DNA from: Minisyncoccota bacterium
GTDB taxonomy: Bacteria; Patescibacteriota; Minisyncoccia; Phycocordibacterales; Phycocordibacteraceae
Length of the DNA stretch: 64,000 nt
Assembly (NCBI GenBank): GCA_018062765.1
Contig: JAGORR010000001.1
Coordinates: forward strand, 217,249 to 281,248
Direction of reading: 5' to 3'
Position 1 is the first letter of the stretch. The number at the start of each line of letters is the position of its first letter. The notes under the pieces were generated by a model. The model did not search any database. It saw nothing but the letters and a program-made list of their open reading frames with translations, and was not told where the DNA came from. Both the position numbers and the translations under genes were made by a program. Shown here one piece after another: positions 496-10,240 of this stretch.

Positions 496-1185
496 TTAGA
501 AATCAGAAAGTTCTCGCAGGGAGCGGTTGCGGTGGATGAGCTCGTCGTTTCGAACGAGCTCGAAGAACTCGTACTCGCTTCTTACGTTCCTTCCGTAGAA
601 GTCGAGGAACTCCGACATAATCGGCCGGTCCTTAAGGGTTTCCTCATTTTGCTCAAGGAACCGAGAGTATTCCTCATACGCGTGGCGCTCGAAGGCATAA
701 TTAAGCTCGTGCGCAGTCTTCCGGGAGAAGAGGTAGATAAGGAAGGTCGCGACGAAGTAGAAGAAGGCAAACAGGAATGGAATCACGGTGTGCCGTACCA
801 CTCCGGCGCAGCGGTACTTACGCACGAGCTGGCTCAACACGACGACGTGCATCGTTTCGTTATCCTGCGCCATACGGCAGAAGGCCCGAGTTTTGGCGAG
901 CTCCATGGCGCGCTTCTCGTTCGTGTAGAAAAGCGTCAGCAGGGTATAGGTCGCGATTTCCCAGGACTGATACGGGACCCGGGCGATGACCTCTATCGCT
1001 TTGAACTTTTCATAGGATGGCCTTCTGCCGTAGAAAACGGTACCCGCAGCAATAAGTAGCCAGCCGAGGGCTCCTGCAACTATGTTTACGCGGTAGTCGT
1101 CATAGGGGCGCGCGTATTCCGTCCTGAGGGCGGGCTCAAGCAGGGTGCGCGCAAGCTCCTCGTGTTCAGCGTAGCTCTCGGTCAT
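496..1185 (-). CDS. alternative oxidase (AOX/PTOX)-like di-iron carboxylate protein
   Basis: Four-helix di-iron ligand pattern in the correct order: IEVIARVPY (E), DNETMHV (ExxH), FERHAYEEY (E/ExxH), RNDELIHRN (ExxH). These resemble AOX LET..VPG, NERMHL, LEEEA, RADEAHH. Confidence 0.55.
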   Translation of the reverse strand: MTESYAEHEELARTLLEPALRTEYARPYDDYRVNIVAGALGWLLIAAGTVFYGRRPSYEKFKAIEVIARVPYQSWEIATYTLLTLFYTNEKRAMELAKTRAFCRMAQDNETMHVVVLSQLVRKYRCAGVVRHTVIPFLFAFFYFVATFLIYLFSRKTAHELNYAFERHAYEEYSRFLEQNEETLKDRPIMSEFLDFYGRNVRSEYEFFELVRNDELIHRNRSLRELSDF

Positions 1186-4064: not shown

Positions 4065-4318
4065 GCCGATGTAGCTCAGCTGGTAGAGCACGTCCATGGT
4101 GGGTCGCAAAGCCCTGCCCACGTTTTCAGTAATGAGAGCGTGAATCCCGAATTACGGTTAATAGCCCCACAGGCCAAGACCGTGGCGCATAGCGCCCGAA
4201 CGACTGACAAGGGTATCCGTTCCGGATAAAGATACAGTCTAGCCCTCTTTCGCGTGGCAGTTAGGAAAAGAGGTGTAAGCGAAGGACGGGGTCGCCGGTT
4301 CAAGCCCGGCCATCGGCT
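4065..4318 (+). tRNA. tRNA gene interrupted in the anticodon loop by an approximately 180-nt insertion (candidate group I intron); anticodon not confidently assignable (possibly Arg)
   Basis: 5' half GCCGATG-TA-GCTCAGCTGGTAGAGC-A-CGTCC-AT at 4065-4097. 3' half CGAA-GGACG-GGGTC-GCCGG-TTCAAGC-CCGGC-CATCGGC-T ending at 4318. Acceptor (GCCGATG/CATCGGC), D, anticodon (CGTCC/GGACG) and T stems are all perfectly paired. About 181 nt are inserted after U33/N34. Confidence 0.6.
4098..4279 (+). ncRNA. group I-like intron within the tRNA anticodon loop
   Basis: Contains GCCAAGACCGTGG (4171-4183), GAACGACTGACAAGGGTATCC (R-like, 4197-4217) and AAAGATACAGTCTAGCC (S-like, 4228-4245), with a P7-like GACUG/CAGUC pairing. 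These resemble the conserved cores of Tetrahymena, Anabaena tRNA-Leu and Azoarcus tRNA-Ile introns. Exact splice sites are uncertain. Confidence 0.45.
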
Positions 4319-4324
4319 CAGATA

Positions 4325-4526
4325 CACGAGAAACGCGCCCCTGCGGGGCGCGTTTCTCGTGTATCTGAGACCCTATTAAACTCCGTTAGAACCCATTTTG
4401 CAAAGGAGCCCTGATTACTCGCGCCTCGCGGACTCGGCGCTCGCCCCGACCCCTGTCCGCACTAAAATCCTTTTCTTTTTTCGCGGGGGGGGGGGAATCC
4501 AAAAATCCGGGCTCGGAGCGGCAGGG
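4325..4526. repeat. left copy of a ~200-bp near-identical inverted repeat (IR-L)
   Basis: Reverse complement of 9030-9227. Contains a 37-nt perfect palindrome cacgagaaacgcgcccctgcggggcgcgtttctcgtg at its outer end and a G11 homopolymer (G8 in the partner). Confidence 0.85.
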
Positions 4527-4544
4527 AGAGGGTCATAATCCTTA

Positions 4545-4575
4545 TTGACGCAATATACCCCTTAGGGGTATATTG
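4545..4575 (+). promoter_or_regulatory. sigma70-like promoter overlapped by a CsoR-type operator palindrome; the transcript is probably leaderless
   Basis: TTGACG (4545-4550), 18-nt spacer, TATATT (4569-4574). Operator CAATATACCCC-tta-GGGGTATATTG (4551-4575) matches the ATACCC..GGGTAT CsoR consensus. csoR ATG at 4581. Confidence 0.55.
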
Positions 4576-4580
4576 CGTTT

Positions 4581-4847
4581 ATGCAACAAGCTCACAAGAA
4601 AAGTTTGCTCTCCCGGTTGCGCCGGATCGAAGGCCAAGTTCGGGGCCTTATCCGACTGGTTGAGAAGGATACCTACTGCATAGATGTTATTACCCAAACG
4701 TCGGCAATAAAAAGTGCTCTCTCAAGCGTCGAAGATCTCCTTCTAGAAAATCACTTGGAAACGTGCGCATCGAATCAGATCAAGTCGGGGAATATAAAAA
4801 AGGCGAAGCAGGAGATTCTTGCCGTGTATCGGCTTAAGCGCAAATAG
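4581..4847 (+). CDS. csoR: CsoR/RcnR-family copper-sensing transcriptional repressor
   Basis: 88 aa. RIEGQVRGL, the conserved Cys in YCIDV, and the H..E..C metal ligands (LENHLETC). Confidence 0.8.
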
Positions 4848-4848
4848 C

Positions 4849-7143
4849 ATGAACGATCGTCGAACGTATCGAGTAAAGGGCATGCATTGCGCTTCGTGCG
4901 CAAGCATTATTGAGCGCGCGGTCAAGAAAGTCGATGGAGTAGAGCACGTTGAAGTGAACTACGGCACCGAGACAGCAAAAATCGCCTTTGATGAGAGTAA
5001 AACCAACCCTCACCACCTTTCCGAGCAACTCAAGCCACTTGGCTATTCGTTTGTGGTTCCTACGGCAGAGTCGATGGGAATGTCAGCCGAAGAGCATGCC
5101 GCGCATACGGGACTAGGGCAGTCAAAAGCCGAGAAGCTTGCCGAAATAGAAGAGATGCGATGGAGAGTATTTTCGGTGCTTCCGTTAGCTGCGTTTAGTA
5201 TTTTTGTAATGGGCTGGGAGATGTTCGCTCAGTTGGGCACTCTAAGCCCAATACCGGAAATCTGGAATGAATTTTTCCATCACCTTCTGCCGATCTTTGC
5301 CACGTACACGTTCATTGTCGTAGGAAAGCCGTACGCGCTTGGTTTCTACCGCTTTGTCCGCTACGGCAAGGCGAATATGGATACGCTGATCGGGATAGGC
5401 ACTTCCGTAGCCTTCGTGTACAGCTTCATTCTTTCCGCTTTCGAAGAGCCGCTTCGCCCGTTTCTTAATGTTGATCAGACCTATTACGACGTAACTATTG
5501 TCGTGATCGCGTTTATCGCGCTTGGCAAATACCTCGAAGCTCGTTCGAAGCTCAAGACTGGAGATGCAATCGAGAAACTACTCGGTCTTCAAGCAAAAAC
5601 CGCCTTGGTAGTGAAAAACGGAAAAGAGGTGGAGATTCCAGTAGATCAGGTAGCCCATGGCGATCTCATCGTAGTAAAACCGGGCGGCAAGATACCTGTT
5701 GATGGCGTACTCACCGAAGGCAGTTCGTATGTAGACGAGTCGATGGTCACGGGTGAATCTATGGCAGTCGAAAAGAACGTCGGCGATACGGTCGTGGCAG
5801 GAACCATAAACACCAAGGGACATTTCGTATTTAAGGCTACGAAGGTGGGTTCCGAGACCTTGCTTGCACATATCATCAAGATGGTTGGGGAAGCGCAGGG
5901 AAGTAAGGCGCCCATTCAGGGGCTTGCGGACAAGATTTCAAGCGTGTTCGTCCCCATCGTTCTTGTCTTTTCGATTCTCGTATTTGCCGCATGGCTTCTG
6001 TTTGGCATACCGACACTCGGTCTTGCGCAGGCGCTCACGCTCGGCCTAACCTCGTTTGTGGGTATTTTAGTCATTGCGTGTCCGTGTGCTCTTGGTCTTG
6101 CAACGCCGATTGCCGTAATCGTCGGTGTCGGCAAAGGAGCGCAGGAGGGGATTCTCATCAAGGATGCCGCCACTCTCCAAAAGCTCCGAAGCGTCGATAC
6201 GGTAGTGATTGATAAGACCGGCACCATAACGAAAGGCACGCCGGAAGTGATAGAAGTCGTTGTGCAGGGAAATCGCGGCAAGGACGAATTGATTTCCATC
6301 TTGGCCTCGCTTGAAAAGAAGTCCGAACACCCGCTTGCAACTGCAATCCTTGCATACGCTGAACGTAGAAATATATCGCTCAAATCAGTAGAGCATTTCG
6401 AAATGCTTTCCGGAAGAGGTGTGCGAGGAACTATAGAGGGGGTGGAATACCTCGCGGGTAACACAACGCTCATGCAAGAATACTCCGTTGCATTTGATAA
6501 CTCTTCTCTTAAAGAACGAACCGAGAAAGGAAGGACGCCGGTATTTCTTGCTACGAAGAAAAGTGTTGTTGGGATAGTATTTGTGGCCGATGCGGTAAAA
6601 CCTGAAGCCGTCACTGCCATTCAAAAACTTCATAAGATGGGAATCAAAACCGTTATGCTTACCGGCGATAATCGCCAGACAGCGGAATCTATCGCGAAAG
6701 AAGTCGGTATAGACGACGTGGTGGCACAGATGTTGCCTGACGAGAAGCTCAACAAGATCAAAGAACTTCAAGCCGAGGGGCGTGTGGTCGCAATGGCGGG
6801 GGATGGCGTGAATGATGCTCCTGCACTTGCGCAGGCTGATGTGGGTATTGCCATGGGCACCGGAACCGATGTTGCCATAGAAACCGCAGGCATTACGCTT
6901 CTTGGCGGGGATATTGGGAAGGTCGTAAAAGCGATACGGCTTTCGCGCTTTACCATGACCGGCATTAAGCAAAATCTGTTCTGGGCATTCATCTACAATC
7001 TCGTTGGGATACCGATTGCAGCAGGAATTCTTTATCCGTTTACGGGATGGCTTTTGTCGCCCGTTGTCGCAGGTCTTGCAATGGCGTTTTCAAGCGTGTC
7101 GGTGGTACTCAATTCACTGCGACTAAAAGCCGTTAAACTATAA
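4849..7143 (+). CDS. copA: copper-translocating P1B-type ATPase with an N-terminal HMA domain
   Basis: GMHCASCA (CxxC HMA), TGES, CPC ([10 protein letters not shown]), [18 protein letters not shown] at 4849 directly after the csoR stop. Confidence 0.95.
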
Positions 7144-7150
7144 CTAACTC

Positions 7151-8170
7151 ATGAAATCCTACACTTTCCACGTACACGGGATGCACTGCAATTCTTGCGT
7201 GGTGCTTACCGAGGGTGAACTCAAAGACCATGCGTCTGTAGAGCATGCAGTTGCTGACCTAAAGACGTGCTGCGTCGAAGTTCGAGGTGATTTCGGAGAC
7301 AAAAGCCACACGGAAGTCGCGCAGGAACTCTCGCCGCTTCTTGAAAAGCACGGGTACAAACTCTCCACGGAGAAAGAGCAGAAGGGAGTGAAGTGGTCTG
7401 ATTTTGGTATCGCAGTCCCGGCGACGCTCGGGTTCATGGCATTTTTCGTCATATTGCAAAAGCTCGGGCTGGTGAATCTCGTTTCAAGCGGCGAAGTGAA
7501 TTACGGAACAGCATTCCTCATAGGACTTATTGCTTCCGTCTCGACCTGTATGGCGGTTGTGGGGTCGCTTGTCCTTTCGGTTTCGGCGAACTATGCGAAA
7601 GAAGGGGATAAGGTGCGTCCGCAAGTCCTGTTTCATATCGGACGCCTTGCCGCGTTCTTCCTGCTTGGCGGCATTATCGGCGCGGTCGGTTCAGCGTTTC
7701 AGTTGGGGACAGTCGGCATATTTGTGATGACCTTTGTCGTTGCGCTTGTGATGCTCATACTCGGCATCAACCTGCTTGATATCTTTCCGTGGGCGAAGAA
7801 ACTTCAACCGACGTTTCCGAAGTTCATTTCAAATCACCTACTTGAGATTAAAAAAGTAAACCACACGCTCACACCAGTGTTGCTCGGTATCGTCACATTC
7901 GTTCTCCCATGCGGATTCACGCAGTCAATGCAACTCTACTCACTTACGACGGGAAGCTTCTGGGGAGGGGCAACGACGATGTTCGTATTTGCGCTTGGTA
8001 CTTTGCCAGTACTCGCGCTTTTGAGTTTCGGTTCACTAGGAATTCGCGATAAAGCGACATCAAGCGTGTTCTTCAAGACGGCGGGACTGGTCGTGATCAT
8101 ATTCGCCCTCATGAATCTGGTAAATAGCTTCGTGATAATTGGGTTCATACCACCTATCTTTAATTTCTAG
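7151..8170 (+). CDS. HMA metal-binding domain fused to a DsbD_2/CcdA-like two-cysteine transmembrane domain
   Basis: N-terminal GMHCNSC HMA fold. Six or more TM helices, with conserved Cys in the TM segments (ASVSTCMAVVG and VLPCGFTQ). Confidence 0.55.
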   Translation: MKSYTFHVHGMHCNSCVVLTEGELKDHASVEHAVADLKTCCVEVRGDFGDKSHTEVAQELSPLLEKHGYKLSTEKEQKGVKWSDFGIAVPATLGFMAFFVILQKLGLVNLVSSGEVNYGTAFLIGLIASVSTCMAVVGSLVLSVSANYAKEGDKVRPQVLFHIGRLAAFFLLGGIIGAVGSAFQLGTVGIFVMTFVVALVMLILGINLLDIFPWAKKLQPTFPKFISNHLLEIKKVNHTLTPVLLGIVTFVLPCGFTQSMQLYSLTTGSFWGGATTMFVFALGTLPVLALLSFGSLGIRDKATSSVFFKTAGLVVIIFALMNLVNSFVIIGFIPPIFNF

Positions 8171-8174
8171 TACC

Positions 8175-8570
8175 ATGGATACGAGCATGAAAGCGACTAT
8201 TGCGGCAGTTATTTTCGGAGGGCTTTTGATCGGTGGAGCATTGCTTCTCTCGGGTAGTTCCGCTACTGACGCTGTCGAGGGAGTCAATGTGAGCGTAGTT
8301 GATGGGAAACAAATAATCGAAATTGGTGCCAAGGGAGGTTATTCTCCGAGAGAGACTATTGCAAAAGCAGACATCCCAACAGTCCTGCGCGTTGCAACGA
8401 AAGGAACGTTCGATTGTTCGTCGGCACTTACTATCCCGGCGATTGGATATCAAAATAGTCTGCCTCCCTCCGGTACTACCGACATAGAAATTCCTCCACA
8501 AAAACCCGGTACGACTCTCCAGGGACTCTGTGCGATGGGAATGTACAACTTTTCCATTAAATTTAACTAG
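8175..8570 (+). CDS. membrane-anchored cupredoxin-like protein (putative Cu-binding), hypothetical
   Basis: N-terminal TM anchor, beta-rich domain, Cys/Met cluster (FDCSS, GLCAMGMY). Position in the cop operon. Homology is tentative. Confidence 0.35.
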   Translation: MDTSMKATIAAVIFGGLLIGGALLLSGSSATDAVEGVNVSVVDGKQIIEIGAKGGYSPRETIAKADIPTVLRVATKGTFDCSSALTIPAIGYQNSLPPSGTTDIEIPPQKPGTTLQGLCAMGMYNFSIKFN

Positions 8571-8635
8571 GGAGCCCCGCCGCATCCTCGCGGCGGGATA
8601 TGCGCGCACGGGTGGGGGCAAGCATGTATGAATTT

Positions 8636-8936
8636 GCCTCGGGGCTGTTTCCGCTATGAGCGTCCATGGCTAAAGGACGAAGGCCGACGTTCGCCGGAGG
8701 CACTCTCTTCCGAAGCGGAAGCGACACAACGAACACCCGTATGCAATGGAGGATGGGGGTTGTGCGAGGCCGGACTCCGAAGGAACGAGGAGGAGGCCGA
8801 AGCTGGGGGAAGGATTCCTTCCTTCCCCCAAACAAGAGCCGCCCCGAAGCTCCCGCCCCGCAGGGCGGAGAGCAAGGAAAACGGCGGCACAGAGGAATCT
8901 AGGCCTTCGTAGCCATAGCGGAAACAGCCCCGAGGC
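8636..8936. repeat. 301-bp GC-rich element bounded by perfect 23-bp inverted repeats (MITE-like element or highly structured RNA)
   Basis: gcctcggggctgtttccgctatg (8636-8658) is the exact reverse complement of 8914-8936. The interior carries multiple local hairpins (cttccgaagcggaag, gggggaagg...ccttccccc). ORFs occur in all six frames, indicating no coding capacity. Confidence 0.5.
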
Positions 8937-9029
8937 GGATGCCGAGGGGTGAATCTCTTTAGTCAGGGGCGCTTCAAAGCGGATAAAAACAGACACGAGA
9001 CCACTGGGTATTTTGGGCTACCCCCGAGC

Positions 9030-9227
9030 CCTGCCGCTCCGAGCCCGGATTTTTGGATTCCCCCCCCGCGAAAAAAGAAAAGGATTTTAGTGCGGACAGG
9101 GGTCGGGGCGAGCGCCGAGTCCGCGAGGCGCGAGTAATCAGGGCTCCTTTGCAAAATGGGTTCTAACGGAGTTTAATAGGGTCTCAGATACACGAGAAAC
9201 GCGCCCCGCAGGGGCGCGTTTCTCGTG
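9030..9227. repeat. right copy of the ~200-bp inverted repeat (IR-R)
   Basis: Reverse complement of 4325-4526; differs essentially only in poly-G/C tract length. Confidence 0.85.
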
Positions 9228-9241
9228 GTAGATTCTAAGTA

Positions 9242-10240
9242 ATGATGCGTCACTTTCTTGTGCCGACACTGGTGTCGGCGCTCATACTTATAGCGCTTGG
9301 CGTATGGCTTGGGCCCGCGGCGTTCGTCACTGCCGTTCTCCTTGTCATTCTTGAGGTCACGCTTTCCTTTGATAATGCGGTCGTAAACGCCCGCATCCTT
9401 AAGGGTATGACGCCGGTGTGGCAGCGACGCTTCCTGACCTGGGGCATGCTCTTTGCTGTTTTTGGTACACGTCTCGTCCTTCCGATACTCATCGTCGCGG
9501 CTTCTGCATGGATGTCACCTTTGGCGGTTGCCTACATGGCCGGATTCGATCCTGAGGCGTATGCGCATCTTCTAGAGGGAACGAAGCACGCGATATACAG
9601 CTTCGGTGCCGCGTTCCTCCTTATGGTGTCCTTGAAGTATTTCTTCGACCAGGAGAAGGAGCTCCATTGGATAGGAATCATCGAGAAGCATTTGTCCCGC
9701 TGGGGTCGCATCGAGGCTTTGGAAATCGGATTTGGCCTTCTCATTCTCCTCGGGTTCTCATTCCTGGTCCCGTCTGCGGAGCAGGGAATCGTGCTCTCCT
9801 CAGGCATTATCGGCATCGCGCTCTTTATCCTCATGCAGGGTATCGCAAGCTCGTTCGCGGTAGAGACGGACACCATCGCGACGACGGCCGCGGGCGCCGG
9901 CCTCGCGCTCTTCATTTACCTCAACATTCTCGACTCCGCATTCTCCCTTGATAGCGTGGTGGGTGCCTTCGCACTCTCAACCGCCATACCCGTTATCGTC
10001 GCAGGCCTCGGTATTGGCGCCTGGTTCGTGCGTTCTCTCACCATCTACTTCGTGCAGAAGGGAACACTCGACACCCTGCTCTACCTTGAGCACGGCGCGC
10101 ACTGGGCCATCCTTGGTCTCGCCCTCTCGATGTACGCCGGGCTCTTGTTCCATGTACCGGAGACGATTACCGGCACCATAGGACTAGCATTTGTCGTCGC
10201 GGCCTATTATTCGTCGCTTCGCGTGAAGAAACATGCTTGA
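9242..10240 (+). CDS. TerC/DUF475-family integral membrane protein
   Basis: EVTLSFDNAVVNA motif; multi-pass membrane protein; 332 aa. Confidence 0.65.
   Translation: MMRHFLVPTLVSALILIALGVWLGPAAFVTAVLLVILEVTLSFDNAVVNARILKGMTPVWQRRFLTWGMLFAVFGTRLVLPILIVAASAWMSPLAVAYMAGFDPEAYAHLLEGTKHAIYSFGAAFLLMVSLKYFFDQEKELHWIGIIEKHLSRWGRIEALEIGFGLLILLGFSFLVPSAEQGIVLSSGIIGIALFILMQGIASSFAVETDTIATTAAGAGLALFIYLNILDSAFSLDSVVGAFALSTAIPVIVAGLGIGAWFVRSLTIYFVQKGTLDTLLYLEHGAHWAILGLALSMYAGLLFHVPETITGTIGLAFVVAAYYSSLRVKKHA

Follow-up and report, generated by a model that had tools for sequence, protein, structure and literature searches.

The DNA bracketed by the two long inverted repeats of the window (that is, the whole 64-kb stretch of DNA analysed) is an insertion, a 4.9-kb copper-resistance cassette at a tRNA-Thr/TerC site, because a syntenic sister genome, L219, has the same gene order without that DNA. 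We consider it probable that the segment from ~4319 to ~9227 (Table 1) is an integrated, non-autonomous mobile cassette, situated at the 3' end of tRNA-Thr(GGU) and upstream of TerC, and that it is a member of a family of such cassettes in Patescibacteria. Synteny with L219 includes glmS (83% amino-acid identity), TerC (89%), FtsE (99%) and PyrG (92%); in that genome an intron-less tRNA-Thr(GGU) is followed ~225 nt on by TerC, without cop genes, inverted-repeat arms or RNA, and L220 resembles L219 at this site. The first-pass annotation had proposed that the tRNA 3' end is a genomic-island insertion point and that related genomes be inspected for TerC directly after the tRNA; the uninterrupted sites in L219 and L220 support the proposal and answer the question positively. 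The GC content of the unique part of the insert is 0.47-0.53, as compared to 0.55-0.59 in the flanks. In L038, a distant relative, the same cop genes lie immediately upstream of TerC and lack repeats, an arrangement that counts against the integrated-cassette reading.

Table 1. Features of the cassette and of its host flanks (positions within the window).
Feature	Position	Strand	Evidence and remarks
tRNA-Thr(GGU), insertion target	4065..4318	+	exons 4065-4100 and 4282-4318; 181-nt intron 4101-4281
Left direct-repeat copy, proposed attL core	4317..4361	+	CTCAGATA + hairpin P; starts with last 2 nt of tRNA
Left hairpin	4317..4369		25-bp perfect stem, 3-nt loop; strand not assigned; inverted-repeat search, RNA fold
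Left inverted-repeat arm	4325..4526	+	202 nt; repeat search, BLAST, profile HMM
csoR promoter-like site	4545..4579	+	TTGACG-18-TATATT; inside unique segment; sequence scan
csoR, copper-sensing repressor, cargo	4581..4847	+	Pfam PF02583, E = 3e-26
copA, P1B-type copper ATPase, cargo	4849..7143	+	Pfam HMA, E1-E2_ATPase, Hydrolase; start as in NCBI gene call
HMA-DsbD_2 membrane protein, cargo	7151..8170	+	Pfam PF13386, PF00403
Cupredoxin-like protein, cargo	8175..8570	+	Pfam PF13473 and gene call
Structured non-coding RNA candidate ('ELEMENT')	8577..9028	+	covariation; reads towards right arm
Right inverted-repeat arm	9029..9227	-	199 nt; C8 tract 9060-9067; repeat search, BLAST, profile HMM
Right direct-repeat copy, proposed attR core	9183..9227	+	CTCAGATA + hairpin P (9191-9227); then native TerC leader
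TerC/DUF475 gene, host flank outside insert	9242..10240	+	Pfam; syntenic in L219-L222

The gene content previously reported between the repeats (CsoR, CopA, an HMA-DsbD_2 protein and a cupredoxin-like protein) is borne out by Pfam. The related cop loci that were inspected, L038 and L090-L098, have their cop genes in the same order, and many homologues are listed for the HMA-DsbD_2 protein. The promoter-like site upstream of csoR is the sole strong plus-strand promoter-like site in the cassette, is conserved in the related locus L097, and overlaps a palindrome (4548-4578) that we take to be a CsoR-type operator. L097 (86% amino-acid identity, ~90% nucleotide identity) carries the same cassette, with exact 30-nt inverted ends.

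The tRNA gene that precedes the left repeat is missed by default ARAGORN and by Rfam, and is detected as a split tRNA by ARAGORN once introns are allowed (4065-4318/9). The spliced form folds as tRNA-Thr(GGU), and intron-less orthologues with exons 94% identical are present in L219 and L220. The presence of a tRNA before the left repeat, reported in the first-pass annotation, is thereby upheld, whereas the 3-nt spacing given there is not: the discriminator base is at 4318, and the repeat therefore starts 6 nt past it. An ARAGORN ambiguity between Arg(GCG) at 34/35 and Thr(GGU) at 36/37 has been described for 'divergent group I introns' of Patescibacteria (PMC13011429). To judge from its 36/37 position, its miscall as Arg(GCG) and its lack of an Rfam match, the intron in the window is probably one of these 'divergent' tRNA-Thr group I introns. 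The tRNA intron had not been recorded previously, nor had the direct repeat and the strong conservation of the '23-bp-IR element' described below.

The insert is framed, in a manner resembling attL and attR, by a 45-nt direct repeat (4317-4361 and 9183-9227) of which the tRNA contributes 2 nt only, and whose copies are 93% identical, with a 3-nt loop as the sole difference. The left hairpin is the right-hand hairpin lengthened by CTCAGATA/TATCTGAG: CTCAGATA, 8 nt at 4317-4324 lying outside the inverted repeat, extends the stem to 25 bp on the left side only. The right hairpin aligns with the hairpin upstream of TerC at the empty site of L219. The same direct-repeat pattern is found in L141, at a tRNA-Thr(UGU); the loop is inverted between the two copies in the window and identical in the two copies in L141. 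A flanking direct repeat is absent at most other arm pairs, and short target-site duplications were found neither in the window flanks nor at 13 other loci.

The ~200-bp inverted repeats are real. The arms at 4325-4526 and 9029-9227 are exact reverse complements of one another apart from a homopolymer, with the left arm at precisely the position previously assigned to it and the right arm starting at 9029 instead of 9030. The '37-nt perfect palindrome' said to end each copy is indeed a hairpin (hairpin P) and falls short of perfection: its 17-bp stem carries a loop of 3 nt, reading TGC in the left copy and GCA in the right one, that lacks self-complementarity. In the left arm, hairpin P is accompanied by a terminal conserved block, GAGACCCTATTAAACTCCGTTAGAACCCATTTTGC (~4367-4401), by a hairpin with loop GAGTCCGCGAG, and by a long stem-loop that holds the G11 tract in its loop. 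The blocks, together with covarying hairpins and stems, are conserved in other loci; the terminal block, ~35 nt, is conserved across the arm sequence family, and a G/C homopolymer is conserved in a hairpin loop of every arm. The length of the homopolymer is another matter. The window has G11 at 4485-4495 in the left arm vs. C8 at 9060-9067 in the right arm, the NCBI record has G12 on the csoR side, where a Logan contig from this population has G8, and the right arm has C8 in both assemblies that cover it; the difference of G11 vs. G8, taken earlier as a marker, changes from assembly to assembly and is not a robust one.

No third arm copy was found in the 64-kb window (BLAST; profile HMM), and neither a solo arm nor a solo RNA copy was found in about 1.4-1.45 Mb of related Patescibacteria DNA (profile HMM/nhmmer). 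The arms are 98-100% alike within a locus and divergent between loci: in L210 and L162 the two arms are 98% alike within the locus, as compared to 68.5% (L210) and 60% (L162) against the window arm, and the RNA is 91% conserved. The earlier statement that long identical repeats imply recent duplication is not supported by these values or by the exact inverted ends of L097. Because arms that are 98-100% alike within a locus are only 60-69% alike between related loci, the comparison points to long-term homogenisation, or concerted evolution, of the arms, rather than to recent duplication.

The most conserved part of the whole cassette is the segment noted in the first-pass annotation as a '23-bp-IR element', which belongs to a candidate structured RNA with a core at 8632-8959, a long-range stem (8636-8658/8914-8936) and an invariant hairpin (8805-8830). 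Identity to the window copy is 90% in L097 and 81% in L092. RNAalifold analysis of 42 copies yields 51 pairs, of which 16 show changes on both sides, as compared to 7.2 +/- 1.6 in shuffles (0/500) and to 4-7 with partners slid. The G-U pairs of the candidate fall on the plus strand. Rfam 15 gives no relevant match, with an E-value ceiling of 10 in the search of the window copy and of 1 in the searches of ten further copies. We conclude that the RNA exhibits covariation.

Matches to the invariant motif of the RNA are present in at least 120 metagenome contigs. In 17 of the 25 contigs of sufficient length, the RNA lies immediately within one of two long, near-identical inverted-repeat arms; such a pair of arms is present in ~40 of 120 fetched loci, with the distal arm beginning 210-275 nt past the motif. 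The family has a common framework (two long inverted terminal arms, and an RNA of ~350-450 nt that lies inside one arm and reads towards that arm) and a variable cargo, comprising restriction-modification genes, ribonucleotide reductase and metal genes, that differs even among close relatives. Many of the loci are at tRNA 3' ends. These repeat-bracketed cargo cassettes constitute a widespread and apparently undescribed family in Patescibacteria.

A large serine recombinase (~500-545 aa; Pfam Resolvase, Recombinase and Zn_ribbon_recom) is encoded in 22 of the 120 loci. In 7/7 tRNA-adjacent loci the recombinase gene and the tRNA are convergent, and the repeat belonging to the recombinase gene begins inside the final tRNA nucleotides; in related loci the recombinase occupies a repeat-bracketed module of its own, between the tRNA and the cargo cassette. 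The gene lies within 3 kb downstream of the RNA in only 5/35 loci, and the proposed link between enzyme and cassette is one of association. In the window, no recombinase gene is found in the cassette (Pfam) or elsewhere in the 64 kb. The first-pass suggestion of a mobilisable, transposase-less unit fits these observations, inasmuch as the same framework of repeats and RNA carries unrelated cargo in dozens of contigs, some beside a large serine recombinase, and the window has none.

According to the mechanism that we propose, integration would occur by site-specific recombination between an attachment region at the centre of the long palindrome that both arms would form in a circular excised copy, and a chromosomal site that would comprise the last tRNA nucleotides and the tRNA's terminator hairpin. 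This geometry would produce exactly the present junctions (tRNA, CTCAGATA, hairpin, TATCTGAG, arm on the left; arm, CTCAGATA, hairpin, TerC leader on the right), and hence the 45-nt direct repeat. The enzyme would be a large serine recombinase supplied in trans; related loci carry one between the tRNA and the cargo cassette. Arm identity would be kept by recombination or gene conversion between the arms, and arm-to-arm recombination would also let the 4.5-kb segment invert. Large serine recombinase attachment sites share a short core only; a 45-nt identity is untypical of them and counts against the model. Arms of 100-770 nt are longer than a recombination site alone accounts for, an observation that likewise counts against it. 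Neither an excised circle nor a second insertion site of this cop cassette was obtained, a further point against the model.

We advance more tentatively the proposal that the cassettes are a distinct, undescribed class of Patescibacteria mobile element, defined by the ~350-450-nt RNA and the structured arms, in which the RNA may serve the element's own recombination, excision control or maintenance rather than being a passive 3' UTR. It could, for instance, be a cofactor of the large serine recombinase or regulate that enzyme.

An alternative that we regard as possible, at a clearly minor probability, is that the repeats serve mainly as a flip-flop switch, the 4.5-kb segment being inverted by RecA or a site-specific recombinase at work on the arms and the insertion being history only. 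Inversion would change which sequence lies ahead of the outward-reading RNA and of the cop operon: TerC, or tRNA/glmS antisense. The arms, which are 200 nt, identical and homogenised over evolutionary time, speak for such a switch, as do the conserved G/C homopolymer in the arm hairpin loop, with its assembly-dependent length, and the constant direction of the RNA, which always points into an arm, so that its transcript would survive inversion intact. The cassette is, moreover, seen in both orientations relative to the tRNA/recombinase side (across the family, 7 distal and 2 proximal relative to the tRNA), an occurrence with which inversion and either-way insertion are equally compatible. However, the cop promoter and putative operator are inside the unique segment, and inversion would therefore not switch the cop operon on or off; no two contigs were found that share their flanks and are opposite in orientation, and contigs from de Bruijn graphs (k=31) cannot tell the orientations apart. 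The orientation of the recombinase module relative to the tRNA is fixed in 7/7 loci, which fits directional integration better than inversion. Din-family segments (Mu G/Gin; P1 C/Cin, with 0.6-kb inverted repeats) likewise have a multi-kilobase unique segment between long inverted repeats, and some relatives of the window cassette likewise have an adjacent serine recombinase gene. Din systems use small invertases of ~190 aa with an enhancer and switch alternative tail-fibre or flagellin genes. In contrast, the recombinase in relatives of the window cassette is ~520 aa and is not encoded in the window, nothing points to an alternative gene fusion, and no small invertase gene was found in the 64-kb window.

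It is improbable, in our estimation, that two independent 200-bp MITE-like repeats landed around resident cop genes and can co-move them as a composite element. The arms do form a conserved family of sequences that share a conserved terminal block, and the cassette lacks a transposase; yet profile HMM searches detect no solo arm either in the 64-kb window or across ~1.4 Mb of DNA from related Patescibacteria, arms are always paired and have the RNA beside one of them, the empty site lacks both cop genes and arms, and the usual short target-site duplications are not seen at the arms. Non-autonomous and composite transposons in general resemble the cassettes in their inverted ends, lack of an internal transposase and variable cargo, and differ from them in that the cassettes exhibit no short target-site duplication, have no dispersed copies in the DNA searched by profile HMM and are site-specific at tRNA ends.

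We assign a lower probability still, and view as very unlikely, a local rearrangement without mobility, in which an ancestral cop operon came to be flanked by an inverted duplication of the tRNA-TerC intergenic region, through hairpin-promoted template switching for instance. The hairpin P upstream of TerC is native, aligning with the L219 hairpin, and the cop genes of L038 adjoin TerC, as that account would have it. But the same arm family and RNA surround unrelated cargo at other tRNAs in many organisms, the whole unit is missing from sister genomes, and nothing in the native intergenic region of L219 corresponds to the arm sequence.

Independent Logan assemblies (k=31) break exactly at the outer repeat boundaries (contig L089 stops at 4354, L002 and L003 both begin at 9198, and L006 begins at 4325), which indicates that both outer junctions exist in reads. 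L006 runs through the inner boundary at 4526/4527, which would be unexpected if the right inner junction were equally covered; the only explanation offered is graph simplification. Least probable of all is an artefact of assembly, the palindrome having given rise to a chimeric or collapsed contig. In its favour are the origin in a metagenome-assembled genome, the homopolymer length that differs among assemblies, and L006, which is unbroken at that inner boundary. Against it, two NCBI-side assemblies agree; Logan contigs of two runs, entering from either outer flank, stop exactly k-1 into the arms; L097 has the same bounded cassette in an unrelated run; and in more than 10 contigs of other projects both arms are internal and have unique flanks.

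As an integrated mobile cassette, the insertion invites comparison with three known systems. Like tRNA-targeting islands (Islander/TIGER-type, usually with a tyrosine integrase), it is inserted at a tRNA 3' end, has a direct repeat starting inside the tRNA, carries accessory cargo (here metal resistance) and is missing from an empty site in a sister genome; unlike them, it has no integrase, its repeat consists of 2 nt of tRNA and a terminator hairpin, it possesses inverted terminal arms of 200 nt as well as a structured RNA that is conserved, and the recombinase of its relatives is a large serine enzyme rather than a tyrosine enzyme. SCC elements with Ccr large serine recombinases also place variable cargo at the 3' end of one conserved gene, and also have recombinase-less cassettes in tandem beside recombinase-bearing ones; the family recombinases match NCBIfam CcrB/XisF distantly (90-108 bits, vs. 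cut-offs of 900 and 375). The target here is a tRNA, whereas in SCC it is rlmH, and SCC ends are short imperfect repeats, not arms of 100-770 nt; SCC is not known to have a conserved RNA. Prochlorococcus tycheposons are reportedly small, cargo-carrying integrative elements at tRNA genes of streamlined genomes, with cargo-only forms and tandem arrays; we know of no long inverted arms or element-borne structured RNA in them.

Patescibacteria genomes are tiny, and the gain and loss of accessory genes in them are little understood. The locus reveals a recurrent, readily recognisable vehicle in which long inverted arms are combined with a single conserved RNA, with insertion at tRNA ends and, optionally, with a large serine recombinase. 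In many metagenomes from groundwater and sediment it carries copper resistance, restriction-modification, ribonucleotide reductase and further cargo. The invariant 32-mer and the covariation-supported RNA model provide a sequence handle for mapping gene flow in the phylum. The findings also offer a candidate new class of structured RNA tied to a mobile element and a collection of natural sites for large serine recombinases at the ends of tRNAs, and they account for one frequent source of broken contigs in Patescibacteria assemblies.

Comparison with related genomes indicates that the 4.9-kb copper cassette between the tRNA-Thr and TerC genes is an insertion. A relative syntenic with the window (L219; GCA_964565655.1), with amino-acid identities of 83% for glmS, 89% for TerC, 82% for VTT, 89% for PrfB, 99% for FtsE, 90% for FtsX, and 92% for PyrG, has in its glmS-TerC interval nothing but tRNA-Thr(GGU) followed by two hairpins ~190 nt apart, the first terminator-like and the second aligning with the right hairpin of the window; cop genes, arms (the two inverted repeats of the cassette), and the conserved RNA are absent from that interval. 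In a second relative, L220, the order is tRNA-Thr(GGU), tRNA-Thr(CGU), hairpin, and then TerC. GC content is lower in the unique portion of the insert than in the flanks. The first-pass annotation had proposed checking the tRNA-TerC interval of relatives, and in L219 tRNA-Thr(GGU) is indeed followed by TerC with no cassette; its readings of the locus as a genomic island at a tRNA and as a mobilisable unit were right. An all-versus-all locus comparison yielded no same-flank pair with opposite orientation or different cargo. The window matches NCBI record JAGOQO010000002.1, a Paceibacterota-type metagenome-assembled genome, and the Logan contigs (k=31) of two runs terminate precisely 30 nt into the arms on approach from either outer flank, as expected of a genuine repeat whose outer flanks differ. 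The contigs L006 and L007 share an end point, 8826, that lies within a 32-nt stretch invariant across all family members and that therefore reflects a repeat common to several genomes in the graph. Unexpectedly, L006 runs through 4526/4527 without a break.

At the left end of the cassette, default ARAGORN and Rfam searches detect no tRNA. When introns are allowed, ARAGORN places a gene at 4065-4319 that is interrupted at position 36/37 by an intron of 181 nt (4101-4281); splicing after U36 and after the terminal G gives a tRNA-Thr(GGU) whose exons are 94% identical to the tRNA-Thr(GGU) genes of two relatives, both intron-less. The discriminator is 4318 and the left arm begins 6 nt later, not 3 nt as first proposed. 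A 'divergent group I intron' has been described in Patescibacteria, with ARAGORN giving Arg(GCG) 34/35, tFind giving Thr(GGU) 36/37, and Infernal missing the gene (PMC13011429); the window intron matches the tRNA-Thr cases of that report.

The arms in the window are exact reverse complements with homopolymer length as the sole difference, bearing out the inverted repeats of ~200 bp claimed initially, and BLAST and profile-HMM searches find no third copy in the window. The G tract is G11 in the window, G12 in the NCBI version of this contig, and G8 beside csoR in a Logan contig from the same population, and for the right-arm tract the two assemblies that include it both read C8; the homopolymer difference, proposed earlier as marking a slippage-prone tract, is not a robust marker, since the left tract varies across assemblies. 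Both arms terminate distally in a hairpin (17-bp stem, 3-nt loop). The left stem alone is lengthened to 25 bp, by pairing between CTCAGATA (4317-4324), the 8 nt flanking the arm, and TATCTGAG (4362-4369); because the probability of 8 bases matching by chance is ~1.5e-5, this extension is not accidental. The right hairpin is preceded by the same 8 nt, so that the unit also lies between direct repeats of 45 nt, at 4317-4361 and 9183-9227. An outward sigma-70 promoter in the arm (TTGCAA-17-TTTAAT) is unsupported: a promoter scan gives no call, and the conserved block is the 'spacer' of this candidate, not its hexamers. As a guide to which strand of the arms is read, folding-energy asymmetry is weak and confounded by G content.

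The non-coding stretch at 8571-9028 (458 nt), which corresponds to the 23-bp-IR element of the first-pass annotation, shares 90% identity with L097 and 81% with L092, and holds a structured RNA candidate. The invariant hairpin motif of this RNA matched at least 120 metagenome contigs, and metagenome contigs frequently terminate at its invariant 32-mer, GCTGGGGGAAGGATTCCTTCCTTCCCCCAAAC. In an alignment of 42 non-redundant copies, the consensus fold comprises 51 pairs with 98.5% of cells paired; both-sided changes occur at 16 pairs, vs. 7.2 ± 1.6 in shuffles (0/500) and 4-7 when partners are slid. G-U pairs occur on the + strand of the window (for example, GU 27 and GC 15 at one pair; UG 11 at another), and, therefore, the RNA would be read along the cop operon, towards the right arm. 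Rfam searches at gathering and permissive thresholds, with the window and ten other copies, returned no family, giving only spurious miRNA-like hairpin matches for arms and RNA; phage and plasmid collections (BLAST) and IMG/VR (motif scan) gave no matches to the RNA. Guide-like complementarity between RNA and junctions was rejected, as eight other loci had none and the window had a single GC-rich match of 12 nt. In at least 17 loci, the gene immediately upstream of the RNA, on its strand, encodes a small HTH_24 protein whose N-terminus is of low complexity; the window lacks this protein.

Features of the cassette, of its assemblies, and of related loci (positions are those of the window unless a locus or contig is named)
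Feature	Position	Strand	Detail
Left arm	4325-4526		202 nt; G11 at 4485-4495
Right arm	9029-9227		199 nt; C8 at 9060-9067
Homopolymer, other assemblies	L001 5236; L006 154		
Structured RNA candidate	8577-9028	+	core 8632-8959; strong covariation
Promoter-like site overlapping CsoR-type palindrome	4545-4579		inside unique segment; promoter scan
Logan contig ends	4354; 9198; 4325		L089 ends; L002 and L003 start; cassette contig L006 starts
Intron-less orthologous tRNA genes	L219 1977-2052; L220 5694-5768		
Loci with typical recombinase order	L134, L200, L206, L115, L106		
Recombinase modules in own bracket	L134 731-2900; L206 6302-7963; L142 518-2243		
HTH_24 protein examples	L183 5390-5686; L189 3202-3738; L091-L093		
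LexA-methyltransferase fusion example	L180 9817-11394		

Among the matches listed, ~40 of 120 loci have an inverted pair with the RNA 60-120 nt inside one arm, as do 17 of the 25 having at least 6 kb upstream. The paired arms range from 50 to 2131 nt (100-365 nt in most pairs), are mostly 97-100% identical within a locus, and bracket 3-11 kb of cargo that is unrelated between loci, including DNA methyltransferases, restriction enzymes, LexA-methylase fusions, and NUDIX, kinase, and methyltransferase genes; in L210, whose RNA is 91% identical to that of the window, the cargo is a class II ribonucleotide reductase, a cobalamin adenosyltransferase, and a multicopper oxidase. The fusion of a LexA-like repressor (DNA-binding and S24 peptidase domains) to a C-5 cytosine DNA methyltransferase occurs in at least 23 copies at at least 19 loci. 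The arms form a distinct sequence family, with four common features: a conserved outer block (approximate consensus GTGnCTnTATTA..N10..TCGAAC..ATTTT), a hairpin whose loop reads GAGTCYGCGAG, a long stem-loop with stem covariation between subfamilies, and, in the loop of the latter, a C-run (C4 to C10) followed by an A-run in all subfamilies. An HMM search of 1.45 Mb of related DNA found no solo arm and no solo RNA. Within loci, the arms are 98-100% alike. The long identical repeats of the window had been read as a recent duplication, yet the window arm is only 68.5% alike to the L210 arm and 60% alike to the L162 arm, with the RNA 91% conserved. In L097, from another study and with cop genes 86% related (amino acids), the contig starts and ends in exact 30-nt reverse complements that have the inner 13 nt only in common with the window arms. 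Within-locus identity together with between-locus divergence thus indicates that the arms are old and kept identical rather than recently duplicated. The pattern argues that the arms undergo concerted evolution, and inversion through the arms would be a plausible explanation of their homogenisation.

A large serine recombinase (500-545 aa), related only distantly to CcrB/XisF, is present in 22 of the 120 loci listed. The typical order is tRNA 3' end, repeat 1, recombinase, repeat 1', arm, cargo, RNA, arm', flank. The recombinase converges on the tRNA in 7/7 cases, and its own repeat starts within the last tRNA nucleotides. With respect to the tRNA, the cassette has its RNA end distal in seven loci and proximal in two; with respect to the recombinase, the two arrangements are about equally frequent. 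Recombinase genes have their own inverted-repeat bracket, the inner copy of which overlaps the 3' end of the recombinase ORF. Very long terminal inverted repeats are present in L119 (1-2131 and 11494-13624, with a whole recombinase gene at both ends) and L214 (1-771 and 5991-6761), and reflect either genuine repeats of greater length or an assembler that passed out through one flank twice. A window-like locus, L141, has the order tRNA-Thr(UGU), hairpin, arm, three genes, RNA, arm, shorter hairpin, has a 45-nt direct repeat that begins at CCA, and has no recombinase.

From these junctions we infer palindromic-attP recombination as the best model and a candidate mechanism. According to this model, the two arms would abut in a circular copy, forming a long palindrome (arm', CTCAGATA, hairpin, TATCTGAG, arm), the chromosomal site would be tRNA end, CAGATA, hairpin, TerC leader, and recombination of the palindrome centre with the chromosomal site would yield exactly both observed junctions. 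The model would account for the longer left hairpin, the shorter right hairpin, and the 45-nt direct repeat; the L141 junctions would obey the same recombination rule; and repeated integrations at one tRNA end would give tandem recombinase-plus-cargo arrays. A 45-bp target duplication by a transposase leaves the extra left-end TATCT(GAG) unexplained, and we prefer palindromic-attP recombination because it explains this extra sequence. A left hairpin that is a collapsed recombinase module leaves the right-hand hairpin copy unexplained. No recombinase for the cassette is present in the window. A 45-nt identity is unusual for serine recombinase sites. An additional function would be needed to account for how long and how structured the arms are.

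The cassette genes encode CsoR, CopA, an HMA-DsbD_2 membrane protein, and a cupredoxin-like protein, the same set as in the related Patescibacteria cop loci examined, where it is often part of larger Dsb/metal clusters. Elsewhere in the window, beside a response regulator, 496-1185 (- strand) encodes a 229-aa protein with weak alternative-oxidase/COQ7-like (di-iron) Pfam matches that is conserved in L009, L011, L031, and L220. Across 80 species representatives, synteny upstream of TerC is mostly not conserved, and cop genes are present there in L038 only. In this locus of a distant Paceibacterota genome (5262-10993), csoR-copA-(200-aa ORF)-HMA/DsbD_2-cupredoxin has TerC directly downstream on the same strand, and inverted repeats and the conserved RNA are absent; therefore, cop-TerC adjacency recurs independently of the vehicle. 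We found no earlier description of the vehicle in the literature searched, the coverage of which was incomplete. We conclude that the locus is an ordinary copper-resistance operon in an unusual vehicle.
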